From assembly GCA_035358815.1 (NCBI GenBank), contig DAOPQC010000002.1, positions 472,207-536,206 of the forward strand: 64,000 nucleotides of DNA. The letters run 5' to 3'. Both the position numbers and the translations under genes were made by a program. Every line of letters starts with the position of its first letter. Positions within the stretch are counted from its first letter, which is position 1. Below, one piece after another: positions 3,726-61,361 of the stretch. The notes beneath the pieces are model-generated. The model was not told where the DNA came from, made no database searches, and saw only the letters and a list, made by a program, of their open reading frames with translations. The DNA is from Thermoanaerobaculales bacterium (GTDB taxonomy: Bacteria > Acidobacteriota > Thermoanaerobaculia > Thermoanaerobaculales > Sulfomarinibacteraceae).

Positions 3726-3827
3726 GATGCGCGCAGCGCATCCTTCTCGGCGCGCGTGGGGCGCAGGCCAGCCAGCGACCGCGACGCCTCACGAGCACCA
3801 TGCGGCCCGCGACCCGCGTGCGCCGAG
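3726..3827 (-). repeat. 3'-end element family, copy A (GC hairpin GATGCGC-GCA-GCGCATC plus conserved flank)
   Basis: Aligns by eye with 11907-12008 and, reverse-complemented, with 31478-31520. Lies directly downstream, in sense orientation, of the CDS 3848-4342. Confidence 0.7.
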
Positions 3828-3847
3828 GGGCCTATGCCCTCACGCTC

Positions 3848-4342
3848 CTAGCCCTTGGCGAGGCGGACCGAGACGCCGGTCAGCGCCTGCTGCTCGATGC
3901 CGAGGTAGAACACCGGGGCTTTCTTGTCCTTGAGCGACACGTTGACCTTGTTGTCGTTGGCCTTGACCTTGTACTTGGACCCCGTGGTGAACGCGAGCTG
4001 GTTCGCGAGGTCCTTGGCGATCTGCTTGGCCTTGGCCTTGGCGACGACGTTAACCCGGACCAGCTTGGCCTCGCCGCCGGTGGGCTCGAAGACGAGCTCG
4101 AGCACGCCGTTGACCTCGGCCTTGCCCTCGATGATGACGTCCCACGACCCGCGGAAGACCCGCTGCGCCTGTGCCTGCTGCGGCGCGGGCGGCGTTTCCG
4201 GCTGCGGAGCGGCCTGGGCTGCCGCCGGTGGCTCGGCCGGCGGCGGGGTCTCCTGGGCATATGCCGACGCGCCCAGGACGCAGAGCGCGGCGATGGTCAG
4301 CACAATCACGGACTGCAGCGACGGACGACCGCTATTTGTCAT
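3848..4342 (-). CDS. secreted hypothetical protein (Pro/Ala/Gln-rich linker plus Lys-rich beta-rich C-terminal domain)
   Basis: The ORF track starts at TTG 4363. ATG 4342 (MTNSGRPSLQSVIVLTIAALCVLGASAYAQ, a signal peptide) follows GGAGGAG by 4 nt. I recognise no family. Confidence 0.6.
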   Translation of the reverse strand: MTNSGRPSLQSVIVLTIAALCVLGASAYAQETPPPAEPPAAAQAAPQPETPPAPQQAQAQRVFRGSWDVIIEGKAEVNGVLELVFEPTGGEAKLVRVNVVAKAKAKQIAKDLANQLAFTTGSKYKVKANDNKVNVSLKDKKAPVFYLGIEQQALTGVSVRLAKG

Positions 4343-10262: not shown

Positions 10263-10325
10263 GATCTGGGATCTGGGGGATGGGGCCCTTCTCCCGTTCC
10301 CGCTCCCGTTCCCGTCCCCGTTCCC
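10261..10325. repeat. G-rich arm (AGGATCTGGGATCTGGGGGATGGGG) abutting a C-rich hexamer arm (CTCCCG TTCCCG CTCCCG TTCCCG TCCCCG TTCCC)
   Basis: Begins inside the topA stop codon TAG (10260-10262). The first 21 nt are identical to 62467-62487. Confidence 0.85.
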
Positions 10326-10331
10326 GAGACG

Positions 10332-10578: not shown

Positions 10579-10607
10579 ATCATACACGGGGTGAGATTTC
10601 ATGTCAA
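10579..10607 (-). promoter_or_regulatory. sigma70-type promoter for rpmG
   Basis: Minus strand reads TTGACA (10607-10602), a 17-nt spacer, then TATGAT (10584-10579). It lies about 30 nt upstream of the rpmG ATG. Confidence 0.7.
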
Positions 10608-10764
10608 TGTCGGGCGCCCGAACAGGCGTGAGGGGTTGGGGAATAGGGGTTCGCTCCCGACTCCGCCTCCGTGCCCCACCCGCTTCCGCTTCCGATGTGA
10701 TGGCTTTCAACGCAGCGGCGTTACCCTGGGTTCGAAGGTGGGGGTGGTGTGCACGATCCCACTC

Positions 10765-10788
10765 GGGAACGGGAACGGGAACGGGAAC
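10765..10788 (+). repeat. (GGGAAC)4 G-tract microsatellite
   Basis: Perfect hexamer repeat about 105 nt upstream of the YdjC-family gene start. Further G-tract (10632-10649) and CTTCCG (10681-10693) fragments occur in the same gap. Confidence 0.9.
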
Positions 10789-10894
10789 GACGGAACGCCC
10801 GAGGCGTCCGCCCTCCGGAACTCGGGGATTGACGAAAAGGAAATTAAGATACGCAGGTAGGACGGATCGTGCCAGGTCCGCGGCGGAGGTGGAG

Positions 10895-11830
10895 ATGTCA
10901 CGAGATTCCCGAACCCGTGTCGCGTTCGCGGTCGCGTCGTTGATTCTCCTCGTCGTGGTCTCGGCGCCGCAGGCCGCCGAGACGGCCGAGCCGACGCAGC
11001 TGATGATCCGCTGCGACGACGTCGGGATGTGCCACGGCGTCAACACGGCTGTGCGCGAGCTGCTCGCCACCGGCCTGCCGTTCTCGGCCTCGGTGATGTT
11101 CGCCTGCCCGTGGCACCTCGAGGCGGTCGAGATCCTCAGGGACCACCCCGAGGTCGGCGTCGGCGTTCACCTCACGCTCAACTCCGAGTGGGAGCACTAC
11201 AAGTGGGGGCCGGTGGTTGGCGCGGCCAAGGTGCCGTCACTGGTCGACGCGAACGGACACTTCCATCCCACCGAGACCGCGTTCGCCGCTGCCGGGCCCA
11301 ATCTCGACGAGGTGCGAGTAGAGCTCGAGGCCCAGATCCAGCGGGCGCTCGCCACCGGGCTGCGCATCGACTACATCGACTTCCACATGCTGACCGCGGT
11401 CTCGACGCCCGATCTGCAGGCGATCGTGGAGCAGCTCGCGGCCAAGCACGGGCTCGGGATCTCGCGCTACTTCGGCGAGCGGTCGGTGTCGCTGTGGGAT
11501 GTCGCGCCCGGGCGCAAGCTGCCGCGGCTGCTCGAGTCGGTGCGGCAGGCGCGTCCCGGCCTCAACCTGGTCGTGCTCCACGTCGGAACCGACACTCCCG
11601 AAATGGCGGCCCTCATCGACTCCAACTACGCAGCCGACCCCTACCGGGTGGCCATCCACCGGCAGGCCGAGCTCGAAGCCGTCACCTCGCCCGCCTTCTG
11701 GGCGGCGCTCCAGACTTCCGGGATCGAGCTCCTCAACTACCGCGACCTCGTGCAACGCCGCGGCCTCGCCGCGATGAAGGCCCCCGAGGTCATCGGCTCC
11801 TACTCGACGTCCTTCACCGAGACGCCATAG
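10895..11830 (+). CDS. YdjC/ChbG-family carbohydrate deacetylase with an N-terminal signal peptide
   Basis: The start is reset to ATG 10895 after GGAGGTGGAG. It begins [29 protein letters not shown] and then [14 protein letters not shown], the YdjC DD-x-G motif. Confidence 0.8.
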
Positions 11831-11883: not shown

Positions 11884-12008
11884 GTTTTCTTTCAGTTTCT
11901 TCATTCTGACGCGCGCAGCGCGTCACTCTCGGCGCGCGCGGGGCGTAGGCCGACGGGGACGGTCAAACATCACTCACTCCGAGCGGCCTACGACCCGCGT
12001 GCGCCGAG
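11884..12008 (-). repeat. 3'-end element family, copy B (hairpin TGACGCGC-GCA-GCGCGTCA)
   Basis: Holds the same conserved block as copies A and C. Its distal 21 nt overlap the last 6 codons plus the stop of the GH105 gene. Confidence 0.7.
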
Positions 12009-29514: not shown

Positions 29515-31449
29515 ATGCGCTGGACAGTGACGCTGATCGCGTTGATCGCCATCTCGCAACCCGTTGCCGCCGAGCTTTCGGCGAGCAGCCTGTTCGGCAG
29601 CCACATGGTGCTGCAGCGCGACGCCGTGGTCCCGGTCTGGGGCACGGCGACGCCTGGATCACAGATCACGGTCGCGATCGCCGGCCACAGCGTCACTGCG
29701 GCTGCCGACCCGGCGGGGCGGTGGCGGGCCGAGCTCCCGGCGCTGGCGGTGGGCGGGCCGCACGCCCTGCTGGTCTCCGGCGACGGCGCCCGGATCGAGC
29801 TCGAGGACGTCCTGGTGGGCGACGTCTGGGTCTGCTCCGGCCAGTCCAACATGGAGTGGACGGTGGCCGACTCGATGCATGCAGCGCAGGAGATCGCGGC
29901 CGCCGATGATCCCGGCATCCGCCACTTCAAGGTGCCCAAGTCGTGGGCCGAGGTTCCTTCCGACACCCTCGCCGGCGGCGCCTGGGAGACGGCCGACCCG
30001 GCGCACGCCGGCGGCTTCACTGCGGTCGGCTACTTCTTCGCGCGTGAGCTGCGCCGCCACCACGCGGTGCCGATCGGCCTCCTCCATACCAGCTGGGGCG
30101 GCAGCCGCATCGAGCCCTGGATGAGCGCCGCCGCGCTCGGGCTGCCCGACACGGCGGTCGAGGGCCTGCTGGCCGCCGAGGCCGCGCAGGAGAAGGCAAC
30201 GCTCGAGCGGGTCCGTGCCCGGATCGGCACGCTGCCGGAGAGCGACCACGGTCTGGTTGACGGGCGGGCGGTGTGGGCCGCGCCGGACCTCGACGACTCG
30301 GGATGGCTCGAGCTCGATGCGGCGAGGCTCTGGGAGGAACAGGGCTGGGAGGGGATGGACGGCATCGGTTGGTACCGGTCGAGCTTCGAGCTGTCGGCCG
30401 AGGAGGCGAAGGCTGGTGTCCGGCTCGGCCTCGGCCCCATCGACGACTGCGACACCAGCTGGGTCAACGGTCACCAGGTCGGCCGCACCGAGTGGGCCTG
30501 GAACCGGGCCCGGGTCTACGACGTGCCGCCGGAGACACTGCGCGCCGGCCGCAACGTGATCGCGATCCGGGTCGAGGACGGGGGCGGCGGCGGCGGCCTC
30601 TACGGCGGCGCCGACGCCCGCTTCGTGGAAGCCGGTGGAGTGCGGCGGCCGCTGCCTGACCGCTGGCGCTTCCAGATCGGGTGGGTGAACGTCAACAGCG
30701 AGTCGCGCAAGAACCAGGTGCCCACCGTGCTCTACAACAAGATGGTCCACCCGCTGCTGCCGTTCCCGGTCGCCGGCTTCCTCTGGTACCAGGGCGAGTC
30801 GAACGCCGGGCCGGGCGAGGCCTTCGAGTACCGGAAGCTCTTCGCCAACATGATCCGCCAGTGGCGCGCCGACTGGGGGCGCGGCGACCTGCCCTTCCTG
30901 TGGGTGCAGCTCGCCAACTTCATGGCGCCGGTCGACGAGCCCGGCGACAGCGACTGGGCGATGCTCCGCGAGTCGCAGTCGGCGGCCCTGGCTCTGCCCC
31001 GCACCGGCCAGGCGGTGGCGATCGACATCGGCGACGCCGCCGACATCCACCCTCGCAACAAGCAGGAGGTCGGCCGCCGGCTGGCGCTGGCCGCGCGCAA
31101 GGTGGCGTACGGCGAGAAGCTGGTGTTCTCCGGGCCCACCTACCGCAGCCACGAGGTGAAGGACGGCCGCGTCGTGATTGCCTTCGACCACGTCGGCGGC
31201 GGGCTCGCGGCGAGGGGCCGCAGCGACGGGAAGCTCGCCGAGTTCGCGATCGCCGGCGCGGACGGCCGCTTCGTCCGCGCCGAGGCGCGGATTGACGGCG
31301 ACCGGGTCGTGGTCTGGAGCGAGCAGGTGGCGGAGCCGGCCGCGGTCCGCTACGCCTGGGCCGACAACCCGGCGGGAGCGAACCTGGTCAACGCCGAGGG
31401 CCTGCCGGCGTCGCCGTTCCGCTCGACGCCCGGGGGTAGCGGCCCCTGA
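29515..31449 (+). CDS. SASA-family (sialate O-acetylesterase-like / DUF303) carbohydrate acetylesterase
   Basis: 644 aa with a signal peptide. It contains VWVCSGQSNMEW (GQSN catalytic Ser motif), a central beta-sandwich insert, and FLWYQGESN. Confidence 0.85.
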   Translation: MRWTVTLIALIAISQPVAAELSASSLFGSHMVLQRDAVVPVWGTATPGSQITVAIAGHSVTAAADPAGRWRAELPALAVGGPHALLVSGDGARIELEDVLVGDVWVCSGQSNMEWTVADSMHAAQEIAAADDPGIRHFKVPKSWAEVPSDTLAGGAWETADPAHAGGFTAVGYFFARELRRHHAVPIGLLHTSWGGSRIEPWMSAAALGLPDTAVEGLLAAEAAQEKATLERVRARIGTLPESDHGLVDGRAVWAAPDLDDSGWLELDAARLWEEQGWEGMDGIGWYRSSFELSAEEAKAGVRLGLGPIDDCDTSWVNGHQVGRTEWAWNRARVYDVPPETLRAGRNVIAIRVEDGGGGGGLYGGADARFVEAGGVRRPLPDRWRFQIGWVNVNSESRKNQVPTVLYNKMVHPLLPFPVAGFLWYQGESNAGPGEAFEYRKLFANMIRQWRADWGRGDLPFLWVQLANFMAPVDEPGDSDWAMLRESQSAALALPRTGQAVAIDIGDAADIHPRNKQEVGRRLALAARKVAYGEKLVFSGPTYRSHEVKDGRVVIAFDHVGGGLAARGRSDGKLAEFAIAGADGRFVRAEARIDGDRVVVWSEQVAEPAAVRYAWADNPAGANLVNAEGLPASPFRSTPGGSGP

Positions 31450-31546
31450 GCGCGGCACTGACGCCATGCCATGAGCTGGCCGCTCCCCCCGCGCGTCGAG
31501 AGTGATGCGCTGCGCGCATCTCGAAACAGACGAAAGCTGAATGCAG
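31450..31546 (+). repeat. 3'-end element family, copy C (hairpin GATGCGC-TGC-GCGCATC, then a purine-rich tail)
   Basis: Starts at the first base after the esterase stop. It is the reverse complement of the copy A/B plus-strand sequence, so all three copies share the same orientation relative to the upstream gene. Confidence 0.7.
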
Positions 31547-37502: not shown

Positions 37503-37590
37503 GGTGCGCTCAGCCCTCCCCCTCCCCGTGCCCGACCCGAGGGCTCCACCGTTGCGTTCGGCCGGACGCGGGGCTCCTCCGCACCCCGTC

Positions 37591-37623
37591 GGGAACGGGA
37601 ACGGGAACGGGAACGGGAACGGG
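37591..37623 (+). repeat. (GGGAAC)5GGG G-tract microsatellite
   Basis: Perfect repeat between the receptor-gene terminator and the sulfatase-TPR gene start. Confidence 0.9.
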
Positions 37624-43792: not shown

Positions 43793-43960
43793 GTTCCCGC
43801 CCCGCTCCCGTTCCCGCTCCCGTTCCCGGACGTGCGGTCACGCGCTGTGGGGCTGCGCCGCCTGCACTGCCTCGGACCAACGCCGCGCAGCGATGGAGCA
43901 GAGAGTGCCCACTTCAACGCCACATTCGGGAAGGGGTACGGGAACGGGTACGGGAACGGG
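43793..43960. repeat. intergenic element with a C-rich hexamer arm (43796-43827), a 100-nt core and a G-rich hexamer arm (43928-43960)
   Basis: The arms are imperfect inverted repeats ((C/T)TCCCG versus GGGAAC/GGGTAC). The core shares TCGGACCAACGCCG with the 272-bp tandem unit. The element fills the gap between two convergent GH5 genes. Confidence 0.8.
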
Positions 43961-45077: not shown

Positions 45078-45121
45078 AGCCGTTCTCGTGCCGCCGGCCG
45101 CGTGCTACGTCGCGACGTGTC

Positions 45122-45193
45122 GGGCACGGGAACGGGGACGGGCACGGGAACGGGGACGGGCACGGGAACGGGGACGGGCACGGGAACGGGCAC
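45122..45193 (+). repeat. 18-mer G-tract array (GGGCAC GGGAAC GGGGAC) x4, giving 12 evenly spaced G3-4 runs
   Basis: Read directly from the sequence. It starts 45 nt upstream of the mannanase ATG (45077, minus strand), and its last 18 nt overlap the first 272-bp unit. Confidence 0.95.
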
Positions 45194-46128
45194 CCGCCCA
45201 CCCGCGAATGAACCGCTACGAGCGCCAAGAGCGCAAAGTCAACGAAACTCAAACCAAGACGACTGCTTCGCGCCCTTCGCGCCTTGGCGGTTCAAATGGC
45301 CAGCCAACATCCGCCGCGTCCTCCGCGTCCTCGGCGGTTCGATCTGTCCGCAATCGCTTCGGACCAACGCCGGCACCTCGCACGCGGAGCGCGTTCCGCG
45401 CCGCCGGCCGCGCCGCCGGTCGCCAACTCCCTCAGCCACCTCCTCTCGGGAACGGGAACGGCCACCCGCCCACCCGCGATTGAACCGCTGAGATCGCCAA
45501 GAGCGCAAAGTCAACGAAACTTAAACCAAGACGACTGCTTCGCGCCCTTCGCGCCTTGGCGGTTCAAATGGCCAGCCAACATCCGCCGCGTCCTCCGCGT
45601 CCTCGGCGGTTCGATCTGTCCGCAATCGCTTCGGACCAACGCCGGCACCTCGCACGCGGAGCGCGTTCCGCGCCGCCGGCCGCGCCGCCGGTCGCCAACT
45701 CCCTCAGCCACCTCCTCTCGGGAACGGGAACGGCCACCCGCCCACCCGCGATTGAACCGCTGAGATCGCCAAGAGCGCAAAGTCAACGAAACTTAAACCA
45801 AGACGACTGCTTCGCGCCCTTCGCGCCTTGGCGGTTCAAATGGCCAGCCAACATCCGCCGCGTCCTCCGCGTCCTCGGCGGTTCGATCTGTCCGCAATCG
45901 CTTCGGACCAACGCCGGCACCTCGCACGCGGAGCGCGTTCCGCGCCGCCGGCCACGTGTCCACTCGGACCCTTCCTCAGCCATCTCCTCTCGGGAACGGG
46001 AACGGGGACGGGAACGGGAACGGCCACCCGCCCACCCGCGATTGAACCGCTGAGAGCGCCAAGAGCGCAAAGTCAACGAAACTTAAACCAAGACGACCGC
46101 TTCGCGCCCTTCGCGCCTTGGCGGTTCA
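45176..46128. repeat. tandem array of 3.4 copies of a 272-bp structured unit
   Basis: Units begin at 45176, 45448, 45720 and 45992, a period of exactly 272 bp. Units 2 and 3 are identical for about 235 nt. Unit 4 has an expanded hexamer tract and is truncated at 46128. The ORF track shows the same 91-aa peptide three times. Confidence 0.95.
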
Positions 46129-60086: not shown

Positions 60087-60167
60087 AGGATTTCGTGCCG
60101 CAGCGGCCGTCGAACTGCCCTTCGGTCGACCCCGTACGCCGAAACGGCCGATGCGGCACGAAATCCT
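60087..60167 (-). terminator. large stem-loop (23-bp arms, 1 mismatch) at the 3' end of the DUF4388 gene; terminator or regulatory hairpin
   Basis: Arm AGGATTTCGTGCCGCAGCGGCCG (60087-60109) pairs with CGGCCGATGCGGCACGAAATCCT (60145-60167). The 35-nt loop has its own 5-bp stem. The hairpin overlaps the stop codon and lies 49 nt upstream of the AKR start. Confidence 0.6.
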
Positions 60168-61281
60168 AACGGTAGCGGATCTCGACCAGCCCGGCCTTGA
60201 CGAGCTTCCAGAACACCACCAGCGCCTCGAGCTCGGGCAGCGGCGAGATCTTGAGGATCGACCCGAGGTCGCTGCCGCCACCGATCCGCGACAGGATGAA
60301 GCCTTCCTCTGGGGTCAGCGACATGCCGCCCAGGTCGGCGGTCTTGGCGGCGAGCACCGGCACCCCGCCGCGATCCACGCCAGCCTCCTGCAGCTTCGCC
60401 CGGAGCTCGGACTCCACCGTCTTGATCTCGCGGCCAAGGTCCCGGTCGTCGGGCATCAGGCTCCCGGCGGCCCGCAGCCGGCGCAGCGCCTGCTCGAGGT
60501 CGAGCTCCACGATGCGGGCCCGGGCCTCGGCCACCAGGTCGGCGGCGGCGGTGGCGGGCGGCGCTGCCGGGGCGGACACCACCCTCGGCCGCACTGCCTT
60601 CAGGCGCCCGCTCGCCGCCATCTGGAACAGGATCTCGGACACGAAGTACTCGCCCGAGTGGGTCTGCAGGCAGATCTCCTCGACGCTGCGATCGTCGTTG
60701 ACCAGCTCGAGCACCGCCCGCCGGGCCTCGTCGGTCTCGCCCTCGAGCAGATCGCGCACCGCCACCGGCACGCACTGCGCCGAGGGTATGAAGCGCCGGA
60801 TCCGGGCCCACTCGTCGACCCTCCGGATGCCCTCTAGGGTCACCGAGGTGACGTTCAGCGAGATCGGCACCATCTCGTACGCCGGCAGCTCGCCGGCGAG
60901 AAAGCGGAACTGACCGTCCTCCCACAGGAACAGCTCGAAGATCGACTCCTCGGCCTTCAGCGCGAGCATCCGCTGGAGCTCCGCCTCGGCGACGGCCCCC
61001 TGGTCGACCAGGATCTTGCCAATCATCTCGCCGCTGCGGTCCTGCTCGCCGACTGCCGCCGCGAGCTCGGCCTCGCCGATGCAGCCGTGGCTGACCAGAA
61101 AATGCCCGAGGAACTCCCTGGGGTCGGTCGAGTTGCAGGACACGATCGCGCCGTCGCGGAAGTAGATCGACTTCACCACGTCGCCGTTGGAGACCATGAG
61201 CGTGCCGGTGGAGTGGCCGTTGGACAGCCAGCCGAAGATGTCTGACAGGACCATGGTCTTGAGGCTGCCGGCGATGGTCAT
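60166..61281 (-). CDS. DUF4388 (PATAN)-domain protein
   Basis: 371 aa. GSLKTMVLSDIFGWLSNGHSTGTLMV is the DUF4388 signature. It also has a GspE-N-like segment (MIGKILVDQGAVAEAELQRML) and a C-terminal LTPEEGFILSRIGG motif. Confidence 0.7.
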   Translation of the reverse strand: MTIAGSLKTMVLSDIFGWLSNGHSTGTLMVSNGDVVKSIYFRDGAIVSCNSTDPREFLGHFLVSHGCIGEAELAAAVGEQDRSGEMIGKILVDQGAVAEAELQRMLALKAEESIFELFLWEDGQFRFLAGELPAYEMVPISLNVTSVTLEGIRRVDEWARIRRFIPSAQCVPVAVRDLLEGETDEARRAVLELVNDDRSVEEICLQTHSGEYFVSEILFQMAASGRLKAVRPRVVSAPAAPPATAAADLVAEARARIVELDLEQALRRLRAAGSLMPDDRDLGREIKTVESELRAKLQEAGVDRGGVPVLAAKTADLGGMSLTPEEGFILSRIGGGSDLGSILKISPLPELEALVVFWKLVKAGLVEIRYR

Positions 61282-61361
61282 GGTGTCGTCTTCCGCCCTC
61301 CGCGACCGAGCGACGTGGATTGCAGTCTGCGCTGATCAGGTTGCCGCCGAGCGGGCTCGGA

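Follow-up and report, generated by a model that had tools for sequence, protein, structure and literature searches.

Dispersed hairpin-forming DNA repeats at TAG stop codons in a Thermoanaerobaculales clade of Acidobacteriota: a probable family of non-autonomous mobile elements

Results

Three copies of a larger family

The repeats described here are dispersed, multi-copy, imperfectly palindromic DNA elements, restricted to one Acidobacteriota clade, which carries the label Holophagae or Thermoanaerobaculales. The unit is about 130 bases long and hairpin-forming, and there are dozens of copies per genome. We suggest that the family is probably non-autonomous mobile hairpin DNA of the REP/REPIN/MITE kind that inserts 3′ of (C/G)TAG, possibly moved by a Y1 enzyme. 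It is a new family of this known type, and there is as yet no evidence for a dedicated RNA gene. From its 5′ edge, the element consists of (C/G)TAG, a long hairpin (H1) whose arms vary between subfamilies but retain their complementarity, a 3-nt spacer and a constant short hairpin (H2, GGATGCGC-TGC-GCGCATCC); TGA(C) often stands directly 3′ of H2.

The first-pass annotation of the window (the whole 64-kb stretch of DNA that was analysed) reported three copies, each sense-oriented at a gene 3′ end. All three are where it placed them, and the orientation holds for each (Table 1); the genes flanking B are convergent, as are those flanking C. An exact match to the core GAYGCGCTGCGCGCRTC is present at each of the three H2 positions listed in Table 1 and nowhere else in the window, and a covariance model run over the 64 kb with filters off returned only A, B and C (E 5e-16 to 2e-11). 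The repeat is therefore real, but the extent of about 100-125 nt first given to it understated its size and structure, as the long stem H1 had been missed. A segment noted as shared by A and B, CTCGGCGCACGCGGGTCG, does exist but is actually the 5′ arm of H1, a 23-24 bp imperfect stem-loop; CTCGGCGCACGCGGGTCGYRGGCC forms the 5′ arm of the 24-bp imperfect stem and GGCCTRCGCCCC(A)CGCGCGCCGAG its 3′ arm. Copy C has the long stem in compensated form (CTCGACGC...GCGTCGAG and AGCGGCC/GGCCGCT), and its 5′ arm falls within the final part of the esterase gene, whose stop is the TGA at 31447-31449. The purine-rich tail originally counted as part of the family did not hold up, being conserved only among orthologous copies of B.

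Table 1. Repeat features in the 64-kb window
Feature	Position	Strand	Description
Copy A	3726-3850	minus	H1 + H2 + 5′ module
Copy A, 5′ module	3828..3850	-	TAGGAGCGTGAGGGCATAGGCCC, 23 nt; present additionally in copy A
Copy A, first triplet of 5′ module	3850-3848	-	TAG stop of the 164-aa ORF 3848-4342
Copy A, H1	3746..3827	-	5′ arm 3827-3804, loop 3803-3770, 3′ arm 3769-3746; from fold and pair counts; covariance-model match 3726-3827, 101 bits
Copy A, H2	3726..3742	-	GATGCGC-TGC-GCGCATC
Copy B	11908-12008	minus	H1 + H2
Copy B, H1	11928..12008	-	5′ arm 12008-11985, 3′ arm 11951-11928; fold z = -5.8; 95 bits
Copy B, H2	11908..11924	-	variant GACGCGC-TGC-GCGCGTC (compensated C:G pair); core match
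Copy C	31422-31520	plus	H1 + H2
Copy C, H1	31422..31500	+	diverged, compensated; 5′ arm 31422-31444, 3′ arm 31478-31500; 75 bits
Copy C, H2	31504..31520	+	GATGCGC-TGC-GCGCATC
fam2 palindrome	60088..60166	-	79 nt, arms GGATTTCGTGCCGCA.. / ..TGCGGCACGAAATCC, without H2; marginal model match, 20.7 bits; its first G completes the TAG stop of gene 60166-61335

When 185,579 species genomes were scanned for the pattern, core and 5′ arm appeared together in at least 72 copies, all in three MAGs labelled "Holophagae"/Thermoanaerobaculales and in no other species genome. A profile search of the fetched loci and the window gave 102 non-overlapping matches, and individual copies are 93-95% identical to the family consensus. 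One could ask whether these counts reflect no more than chance or a base composition of 70% G+C (GC-rich coding motifs, ..EIEALRA.. among them), since the 26-nt core pattern also matches coding sequence in about 23 unrelated genomes, Variovorax and Pseudoxanthomonas included. Those coding matches, however, have neither the 5′ arm nor the stem; under the family model the window copies score 75-101 bits against about 20 for the best unrelated sequence in the window; and the core with ≤2 mismatches occurs five times in the window against 0.78 expected, a count never reached in shuffles. We give this explanation practically no credence.

The copies are dispersed on contigs of 0.25-1.6 Mb, and their neighbours are housekeeping genes (valS neighbours, fabF, glycoside hydrolases). 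This setting bears on a superficial resemblance to integron-type attC sites at the 3′ ends of gene cassettes, like the Vibrio VCRs, which are likewise imperfect dyads of about 125 nt with variable sequence and conserved structure, a fixed orientation after the ORF and conserved mismatches through which the two strands come to differ. We regard the attC explanation as very improbable: scattering beside housekeeping genes speaks against it, RYYYAAC / GTTRRRY core sites are absent, the window contains neither a cassette array nor an integrase, and the flanking genes are syntenic in element-free relatives.

The 5′ end adjoins a TAG stop codon

In further copies, from related genomes, the preference for gene 3′ ends and for one orientation proved strict. 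A co-oriented stop codon lies ≤5 nt from, or inside, the 5′ end of the element in 47 of 76 copies, whereas the 3′ end abuts a stop codon in none of 71. The partner stop is TAG in 46 of 50 cases, compared with 75 of 281 (27%) elsewhere (odds ratio 32, P = 7e-19), and TAG is the first triplet of the element in 53 of 61 copies. The preceding base in these 53 is C (28), G (19), T (5) or A (1), that is CTAG in 53% and GTAG in 36%; C is commoner there than before other TAG stops (28/53 versus 19/80, P = 8e-4). An independent metagenome scan anchored on H2 alone gave again the order of gene, TAG, variable H1 and constant H2, with an upstream ORF at 74 of 101 sites, a TAG end in 64 of these 74, and stop-to-H2 distances that peak at 75-85 nt and about 105 nt. 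Within the 5′ arm of fam1, the subtype found in the window, there is an extra GTAG, which pairs as GTAG...CTAC within the stem.

Sense orientation directly 3′ of coding sequence would also suit an RNA structure of the 3′ UTR selected by the host, for instance a terminator that depends on a factor or works with no U-tract, an obstacle to 3′ exonucleases or a processing site for RNase III/E; the copies would then be numerous because a useful module had been recruited, and not through selfish spread. We consider this possible but unlikely. Such a function leaves the TAG requirement at the partner stop unexplained, and at 23 of the 50 abutted gene 3′ ends the next gene downstream is co-oriented, the excess of convergent neighbours (54% versus 42%) not being significant (P = 0.16).

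Three other ideas about the junction were rejected. The 5′ module of the master copy has TAG in all three frames, and three-frame stops are kept in 22 of 65 copies against 0.9% of shuffles, but the second and third TAG are among the least conserved positions of the consensus and resemble leftovers of repeated xTAGGCC arm motifs, which argues against a selected three-frame stop cassette. Stop-codon recoding of the PYLIS or SECIS kind was considered briefly and set aside, as the TAGs stand at conserved protein C-termini. Nor is there a conserved gene downstream of the element: the sequences that recur there are repeat modules (fam2; a 30-55 nt extension) and contain no ORFs.

Pairing and covariation in H1 and H2

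The strong covariation is in the long stem H1, which was not recognised at first. Over 52 distinct copies, changes on both sides are seen at 12 of the 20 pairs that make up the main H1 helix; with 13 such pairs in all, the number was not reached in any of 500 shuffles, and 89.7% of cells are paired. The two 24-nt arms of H1, which enclose a loop of about 34 nt, are paired in 85% of cells and are not themselves small palindromes. The basal arm sequences are specific to subfamilies yet complementary, and at least six different arm sequences are combined with one constant H2. Covariation of this kind is expected for a DNA hairpin or inverted repeat as much as for RNA. The double change from T:A to C:G in H2, which had been put forward in support of a selected structure, is real in copy B but is weak evidence of selection. 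It recurs in the orthologous copies L010, L040 and L073, and because it is a single event common to orthologues, it says little about selection acting on H2. There is no other compensatory pair in H2; one extra copy has a C.A mismatch at the same position, and H2 is otherwise invariant.

Several properties of the stems bear on a host-selected RNA. The sense RNA of the master copy folds as a single rod (-84 kcal/mol, z = -4.6), which favours it, as do two comparisons between orthologues. Copy C is a unique sequence that would be hard to homogenise by conversion, yet it has a compensated pair between orthologues, with A:T in L003 and L076 where the window has C:G (AGAGGCC/GGCCTCT versus AGCGGCC/GGCCGCT); and in L040, an orthologue of copy B, the stem is kept through three changes on both sides. 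Against it, the non-Watson-Crick cells of the sense strand show no excess of G.U over A.C (17 versus 23), and the three conserved stem mismatches include A.C and C.A, which weaken the sense RNA and become wobbles only if the antisense strand is read. Rfam contained no family matching the window at gathering thresholds, and relaxed E-values gave only generic long-hairpin matches to eukaryotic miRNA precursors, far under threshold. The observation that no U-tract follows the hairpin, and that the element is hence not a classical terminator, is borne out: no T-run stands 3′ of H1 or H2 in any window copy. A terminator scan of the window found nothing at copies A or B; in favour of an RNA role, classical terminator-like sites are scarce in the window as a whole (9 versus 4.5 expected), and the element-free relative L105 has a classical hairpin and T-run terminator after the gene that precedes copy A.

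Related subfamilies

The window subtype fam1 is a derived form, an unpaired fam3 5′ arm joined to a complete second hairpin (CTCGGCGC.../...GCGCCGAG) and H2. The commoner fam3 is a simple hairpin; fam2 and fam3 are both inverted-repeat hairpins of about 80 nt, and the fam2 arms stand before H2 in related genomes. These simple hairpins could suggest a classical MITE, that is, a deletion derivative of an insertion sequence with a DDE transposase, terminal inverted repeats and staggered cuts at TA or CTAG. The CTAG context matches that of IS630/IS5. In L104, fam4, which is a neighbouring family, has a clean duplication of CTAG (or TA) at such a site. Moreover, the 5′ module is complementary in part to the H2 region: the 5′ end (AGGAGCGTGTAGGGCAT) agrees at 13 of 16 positions with the 3′ end (AGGATGCGCGCAGCGCAT) when the latter is reverse-complemented, and the two ends pair in the sense fold. 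Nevertheless, we find a classical MITE improbable. No target-site duplication was found at fam1 or fam3, whose flank on the 3′ side reads TGA, CGA, TGG or the like, with TA in just about 3 of 72; insertion at a palindromic CTAG or TA should yield both orientations, which the complete absence of 3′ ends at stop codons contradicts; the combination of so many arm sequences with a single H2 is hard to square with sequence-specific recognition of terminal repeats; and the fetched loci contain no insertion sequence with these ends.

Empty sites, gene ends and turnover

Three comparisons of empty and filled sites were available, and in all of them the 3′ junction is unreadable. At the site of copy A, the upstream gene ends in TAG also in the element-free relatives L103 and L105, and all homologues of the 164-aa ORF terminate at the same residue. 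A FabF site filled in L009 is empty in the 90%-identical L111, where it reads GAC TAG GAC; in three more distant relatives it reads TGA. The third site, an intergenic one, holds the element in L064 but not in L007, with a spacer too diverged to give the exact junction.

Copy B is of a different kind. The final six codons of GH105 (LGARGS) lie in its 5′ arm, and a GTAG within that arm supplies the TAG stop at 11990-11988. That the element provided this end of the gene had been proposed from the sequence, and a comparison of C-termini agrees: element-free syntenic relatives end in LKLASE* or LKLARE*, their TAA or TGA standing three codons before the stop now in use. Copy B thus did not land on a TAG.

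The repeats also change in place. The copy A site is occupied by fam1 in the window lineage and by a fam3 hairpin in genome G1 (L102), and in strains L097-L099 the 5′ module of copy A is replaced by a GGAGTTCG-type arm. Between strains with near-identical flanks, about 12 or more clustered substitutions fall inside copy A (with one further difference downstream), a patch swap that points to conversion and not to constraint. At the same time, many copies are orthologous in position and 94-97% identical despite a synonymous divergence of the genomes of 15-23%. Such conservation needs gene conversion or purifying selection, and therefore leaves room for a host function. In favour of a host-selected RNA, orthologous master-type copies and copy C are more conserved, at 0.94-0.97 against 0.77-0.85 for neighbouring third-codon positions (P 1e-5 to 1e-10), although the orthologues of copy B have evolved at or above the synonymous rate.

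Discussion

Four roles were offered for the repeat when it was first noticed, and the small non-autonomous mobile element fits best. According to the mechanism that we propose, the element would insert directly 3′ of a (C/G)TAG that is already there, always the same way round and with no duplication of the target. At a G+C content of 70%, a site of this kind would usually be a stop codon, so that insertion there would be harmless and the copy would be retained. A candidate for the enzyme acting in trans is a Y1 transposase (an HUH-type single-strand DNA enzyme) of the RAYT, TIRYT or class 3 TnpA kind, which would recognise the single-strand hairpin. After their spread, copies may have been homogenised by gene conversion. 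Its location in the 3′ UTR makes co-transcription of the element probable, and we speculate that it could have a secondary role as a 3′ hairpin that stabilises or ends the transcript or affects translation termination.

A close parallel to a mobile hairpin of this sort is found in the GTAG-tagged REPs and REPINs mobilised by RAYT (TnpA-REP), which are high-copy, dispersed extragenic palindromes (Bertels & Rainey 2011, PMC3116915; Di Nocera et al. 2013, PMC3733652). Like them, the family has dispersed and mostly extragenic palindromic copies within a genome, an xTAG at the foot of the hairpin (and the GTAG...CTAC pair within the fam1 stem), a REPIN-like geometry in which a spacer of about 34 nt separates inverted arms of about 24 nt (though these are not small palindromes in their own right), mosaics with other repeats, and a location mostly downstream of genes with the TAG often being the stop codon; GTAG-tagged REPs often provide the TAG stop of flanking ORFs (PMC3733652). 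Persistence at orthologous sites is shared with REPINs (PMC3116915; bioRxiv 10.1101/2022.05.22.493013). The family differs from REPs and REPINs in that CTAG is a commoner tag than GTAG, the unit measures 80-130 nt (20-40 nt for a REP), the constant extra hairpin H2 on one side only makes it asymmetric, the arms vary widely between subfamilies, and no cognate RAYT flanked by family repeats was found among the loci examined.

Within the same phylum, RAYT-like TIRYT genes occur in Acidobacteria (PMC3733652), as do class 3 Y1 transposases bordered by high-copy hairpins (Quentin et al. 2018, PMC6006769; Di Nocera et al. 2013), the associated 'atypical secondary structures' numbering for example about 600 in Solibacter usitatus. 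The foot described for class 3 is CnGA, whereas that of the family is xTAG, although CTGA does occur 3′ of H2. One H2-carrying metagenome contig (L212), of unverified lineage, encodes a Y1_Tnp ORF (PF01797, 34.2 bits). Its motifs are, however, of the RAYT type (HYHL, YIHLNP) and not of class 3 (Y....Q), and it is flanked by its own inverted repeats, which are unrelated to the family. Motif screens for Y1 transposases over about 0.8 Mb of fetched loci gave no candidate besides L212, which belongs to the metagenome set.

IS200/IS605 elements and PATEs resemble the family in their insertion 3′ of a fixed short sequence in a single orientation and with no duplication, a pattern that we find here as well, in having a hairpin at each end, and in a strand asymmetry that the family displays through its conserved mismatches. 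The two end hairpins of the family differ in size, unlike those of IS200/IS605, and there is no coding part; the mechanism is in our case inferred. We know of no description of a (C/G)TAG target for the IS200/IS605 family. ERIC and Correia (NEMIS) MITEs are similar in that they, too, are imperfectly palindromic, measure 100-150 nt, lie in intergenic DNA that is transcribed and form long RNA hairpins, with subfamilies that arise through internal rearrangement. They have orientation-dependent effects on mRNA. The TA duplication and the use of both orientations that characterise them are not seen in the family, which is locked to stop codons. Rho-independent terminators share with the family a GC-rich hairpin 3′ of the gene, and L105 has one at the equivalent place; the family differs by the missing U-tract and by copies that have sequence in common and not shape alone.

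A compromise between mobility and host function would be a domesticated 3′-end module: units of TAG, variable H1 and constant H2, inserted by a Y1 enzyme exactly 3′ of (C/G)TAG and in a single orientation, would have become the lineage's standard U-tract-less terminator or stabiliser or a modulator of UAG termination, the invariant H2 being the site of a dedicated protein and the orthologues outlasting synonymous sites through selection. We think this rather improbable and prefer a mobile hairpin whose copies are simply tolerated at stop codons.

If our interpretation is true, this would be the first REP/REPIN-like repeat superfamily described in the Thermoanaerobaculia/Holophagae branch of Acidobacteria, and an unusually strong form of the known tendency of repeats to adjoin stops, with 86-92% of partner genes ending in TAG and the orientation locked. 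In practical terms, the repeats confound the prediction of sRNAs, terminators and gene ends in these MAGs, C-termini such as that of GH105 are partly element-derived, and the repeats, which are likely assembly break points, also provide a convenient strain-typing marker. None of these points overturns current understanding. The constant H2 beside a freely varying H1 would offer a natural dataset for what a hairpin-recognising transposase reads, and the family bears on whether 3′-UTR hairpins may substitute for classical terminators in high-G+C lineages.

Structure of the element

The first-pass annotation proposed three copies of a repeat, each in sense orientation at a gene 3' end. These copies (A, B, and C) are real and related; a 17-nt core occurs exactly three times in the window (see table), and a same-strand gene precedes each copy. 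A covariance model run against the window, whose G+C content is 70%, recovered only these copies (101, 95, and 75 bits), the next and unrelated match scoring about 20 bits. Copy A follows a 164-aa ORF, and a co-oriented phosphoesterase gene lies 168 nt downstream of it. Copies B and C, both flanked by convergent genes, overlap the ends of a GH88/GH105 hydrolase gene and a SASA-type esterase gene, respectively.

Alignment and folding identify CTCGGCGCACGCGGGTCG, earlier described simply as shared sequence, as the 5' arm of a 24-bp imperfect stem (H1), whose 3' arm, GGCCTRCGCCCC.CGCGCGCCGAG, lies immediately upstream of the short GC hairpin (H2). In copy C, the H1 5' arm falls within coding sequence and the stem is in compensated form (CTCGACGC/GCGTCGAG, GGGGG/CCCCC, AGCGGCC/GGCCGCT). 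Among 52 distinct copies, standard pairs fill 89.7% of cells, and changes on both sides are found at 13 pairs, 12 of these within the 20-pair main H1 helix; they total 46 cells, a figure reached by 0/500 shuffles, and slid controls collapse. The original structural argument was based on H2, the weaker of the two hairpins. Its U:A to C:G change is real but is confined to four mutually orthologous copies (copy B, L010, L040, and L073), with C.A there in one other copy and H2 otherwise near-invariant. The "compensatory" changes could alternatively stem from palindrome-templated correction or gene conversion. Apart from three conserved mismatches (A9.C, C12.A, and U16.C), G.U and A.C occur with equal frequency (17 and 23 cells, respectively), and there is thus no sign of selection specifically on the sense RNA. 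Folded at full length, the sense strand forms one rod (-84 kcal/mol, z = -4.6), with the 5' module paired to the H2 region; on the antisense strand, H1 and H2 form instead. A search of Rfam returned nothing resembling the element.

Distribution and modular design

A pattern anchored on the spacer and H2, leaving the covarying position free, was run against 185,579 species, each represented by a single genome. Of the 95 loci returned, 72 also carry the 5' arm, all within three MAGs labelled Holophagae (MFD00032.bin.2.196, MFD00709.bin.2.175, and FeB_10); the remaining matches, about 23, are coding-sequence look-alikes without the stem. The organism of the window is itself present in several digester and wetland assemblies and is placed in Thermoanaerobaculales by one source. 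Profile searching of the fetched DNA gave 102 non-overlapping matches. The copies are 93-95% identical to a master consensus, [C]TAGGAGCGTGTAGGGCATAGGCCC-CTCGGCGCACGCGGGTCGTAGGCC-(34 nt)-GGCCTACGCCCCACGCGCGCCGAG-AAG-GATGCGCTGCGCGCATC-CTGA.

Weaker matches and neighbouring repeats reveal a modular superfamily in which varied long hairpins precede a constant 3' module, H2. The subtype of copies A-C (fam1) consists of an unpaired fam3 5' arm, a complete second hairpin, and then H2. A metagenome-contig scan with H2 alone, unbiased as to H1, yielded >120 contigs; at 92 of 112 sites, a basal stem 12 nt or longer stops 0-6 nt short of H2, and fam3-like hairpins predominate. In related genomes, fam2 arms occur upstream of H2 and also beside fam1 copies.

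Repeat features of the window and arms of the related palindromic families
Feature	Position	Strand	Description
Core, copy A (3726-3850)	3726-3742	minus	GAYGCGCTGCGCGCRTC, exact match
Core, copy B (11908-12008)	11908-11924	minus	GAYGCGCTGCGCGCRTC, exact match
Core, copy C (31422-31520)	31504-31520	plus	GAYGCGCTGCGCGCRTC, exact match
fam2 element	60088-60166	minus	79-nt palindrome, no H2; abuts TAG stop of gene 60166-61335
CGGGAA-type arrays	10293-10327, 10764-10800, 37589-37623, 43926-43960, 45104-45190, 45974-46024		
fam2			arms GGAGTTCGTGCCGCAGTGGCC and GGCCAATGCGGTACGAACTCC
fam3			simple hairpin, ~80 nt; arms GGAGCGTGTGGGGCAGAGGCC and GGCCTCTGCCCCACACGCTCC
fam4			arms begin CCCGCG; terminal repeats GCCCGCATATCTCACC / GGTGAGGTATGCGGGC
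Variant arms			GGAGATTGA.., TAGGATCGCGAA.. and CTGAGAGC..

Other repeats are found nearby. Arrays of CGGGAA (variants CGGGGA and CGGGCA) occupy intergenic window DNA on both strands and border a 272-nt unit repeated in tandem three to four times (45157-46128, 84-98% identity); similar CCCGTT/CCCGTA arrays flank elements in two other loci (L046 and L074). The YdjC-like gene (10601-11830, plus) has a longest ORF of 409 aa, compared to 311 aa in public gene calls. As the extra N-terminal stretch contains the array at 10764-10800, translation probably begins downstream of it.

Association with TAG stop codons

The preference for gene 3' ends and the fixed orientation persist in further copies. At the genome loci, the stop of a co-oriented gene lies within 5 nt of the element 5' end, or inside it, in 47/76 copies, whereas a gene end lies within 5 nt of the 3' end in 0/71. 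The stop of the abutting genes is TAG in 46/50, compared to 75/281 elsewhere in the same loci (P = 7e-19), and C precedes TAG more often at elements (28/53) than at other TAG stops (19/80, P = 8e-4). The element's first TAG serves as the stop in 33 copies; about six use the second or third, and six an in-stem GTAG. At H2-scan sites, 74/101 have an upstream co-oriented ORF, 64 of the 74 ending in TAG, and distances from stop to H2 show two peaks, one at 75-85 nt and the other near 105 nt. The 5' half of the master copy (first ~47 nt, e.g. L081 671-720) has four occurrences of TAGG, which explains the three-frame stop codons in 22/65 copies, against 0.9% of shuffles; copy A (3804-3850) has TAG, TGA, and TAG across the three frames.

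At the copy A site, homologues of the upstream protein all terminate at the same residue, and relatives without the element (L103 and L105) likewise have a TAG stop. The FabF site carries the element in L009 and is empty in the 90%-identical L111, reading GAC TAG GAC; in three more remote relatives the site has GAC TGA. TAG at both empty sites indicates that the stop codon was present first, with the element lying 3' of it. Copy B differs. In syntenic relatives without the element (L106 and L108), GH105 ends LKLASE* or LKLARE* with a TAA or TGA stop, and in the element-carrying clade it ends LKLGARGS* or LKLGARRP*. The comparison bears out the suggestion that the element supplied the end of this gene, the last codons and stop coming from the H1 5' arm. 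The GH105-YdjC spacer of L106 and L108 has (CGCTAT)n or (CAGCTAT)n arrays where the window holds copy B.

Turnover and origin

One intergenic site has the element in one related genome (G2, L064) and lacks it in another (G1, L007). The copy A site is occupied by fam1 in the window lineage, by fam3 in G1, and in L104 by fam1 together with a fam4 MITE (~1690-1880), which sits between the TAG stop and fam1 with a CTAG (or TA) target duplication. No target duplication was found flanking fam1 or fam3. We note that fam4 also lies upstream of fam1 in L005, L070, L088, and L049, and that in L103 PemK-like and HicA-like toxin-antitoxin genes (1635-2838) directly follow the copy A gene, in place of the element and the phosphoesterase gene. 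Three strains (L097, L098, and L099) have flanks almost identical to the window, with one further difference downstream; in their copy A, a fam2-type arm, GGAGTTCGCACCGCATCGG, replaces GGAGCGTG-AGGGCATAGG in the 5' module (window 3828-3850), and the stem has five more substitutions (window 3746-3827). These differences look like a gene-conversion patch. Many copies occupy orthologous sites across G1, G2, G3, and the window lineage. Identity between orthologous copies is 94-97% for the master and C types, compared to 77-85% at adjoining third-codon positions; copies of the B type diverge at roughly the synonymous rate or above it with the stem retained, one of them (L040) having three changes on both sides of the stem.

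Of the four roles considered in the first pass (3'-UTR stabiliser, RNase-processing site, 3'-UTR-derived sRNA, and small non-autonomous mobile element), the last is best supported. We place the family with REP/REPIN/MITE-type elements on the basis of its copy number, hairpin with co-varying arms, narrow taxonomic range, site polymorphism, conversion patches, and mosaic nesting. Its (C/G)TAG junction resembles hairpin-recognising Y1 transposition in being one-sided, orientation-locked, and duplication-free. GTAG-tagged REPs are known donors of TAG stops (PMC3733652), and RAYT-like TIRYT genes are known from Acidobacteria, as are class 3 Y1 genes with which high-copy hairpins are associated (PMC3733652, PMC6006769). 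One metagenome contig (L212, reverse strand 1748-2729) encodes a RAYT/TIRYT-like Y1_Tnp ORF (PF01797, 34 bits) with HYHL and YIHLNP motifs. On either side of the gene lies an inverted repeat of its own, GAGGTTGTGATACCTGGCACC; this repeat and the gene's 3' end are duplicated together downstream, and about 680 nt farther along there is an H2 element. As these repeats are unrelated to the family, we can only infer a link between the element and a Y1 transposase.

A secondary role as RNA is plausible from the position of the element and from L105, where the orthologue of the copy A gene, without the element, is followed by a classical terminator (GGGGTCCGCCAC-GAAG-GTGGCGGACCCTC, then GTTTTG, ~1700-1745). 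The 3' hairpin may act as a stabiliser or terminator, or may affect translation termination, as reported for REPs near stop codons (Liang et al. 2015, as cited in PMC6006769). The initial observation is confirmed and extended, and we regard the family as of moderate interest for its unusually strict association with TAG stops and its design of variable H1 and constant H2.
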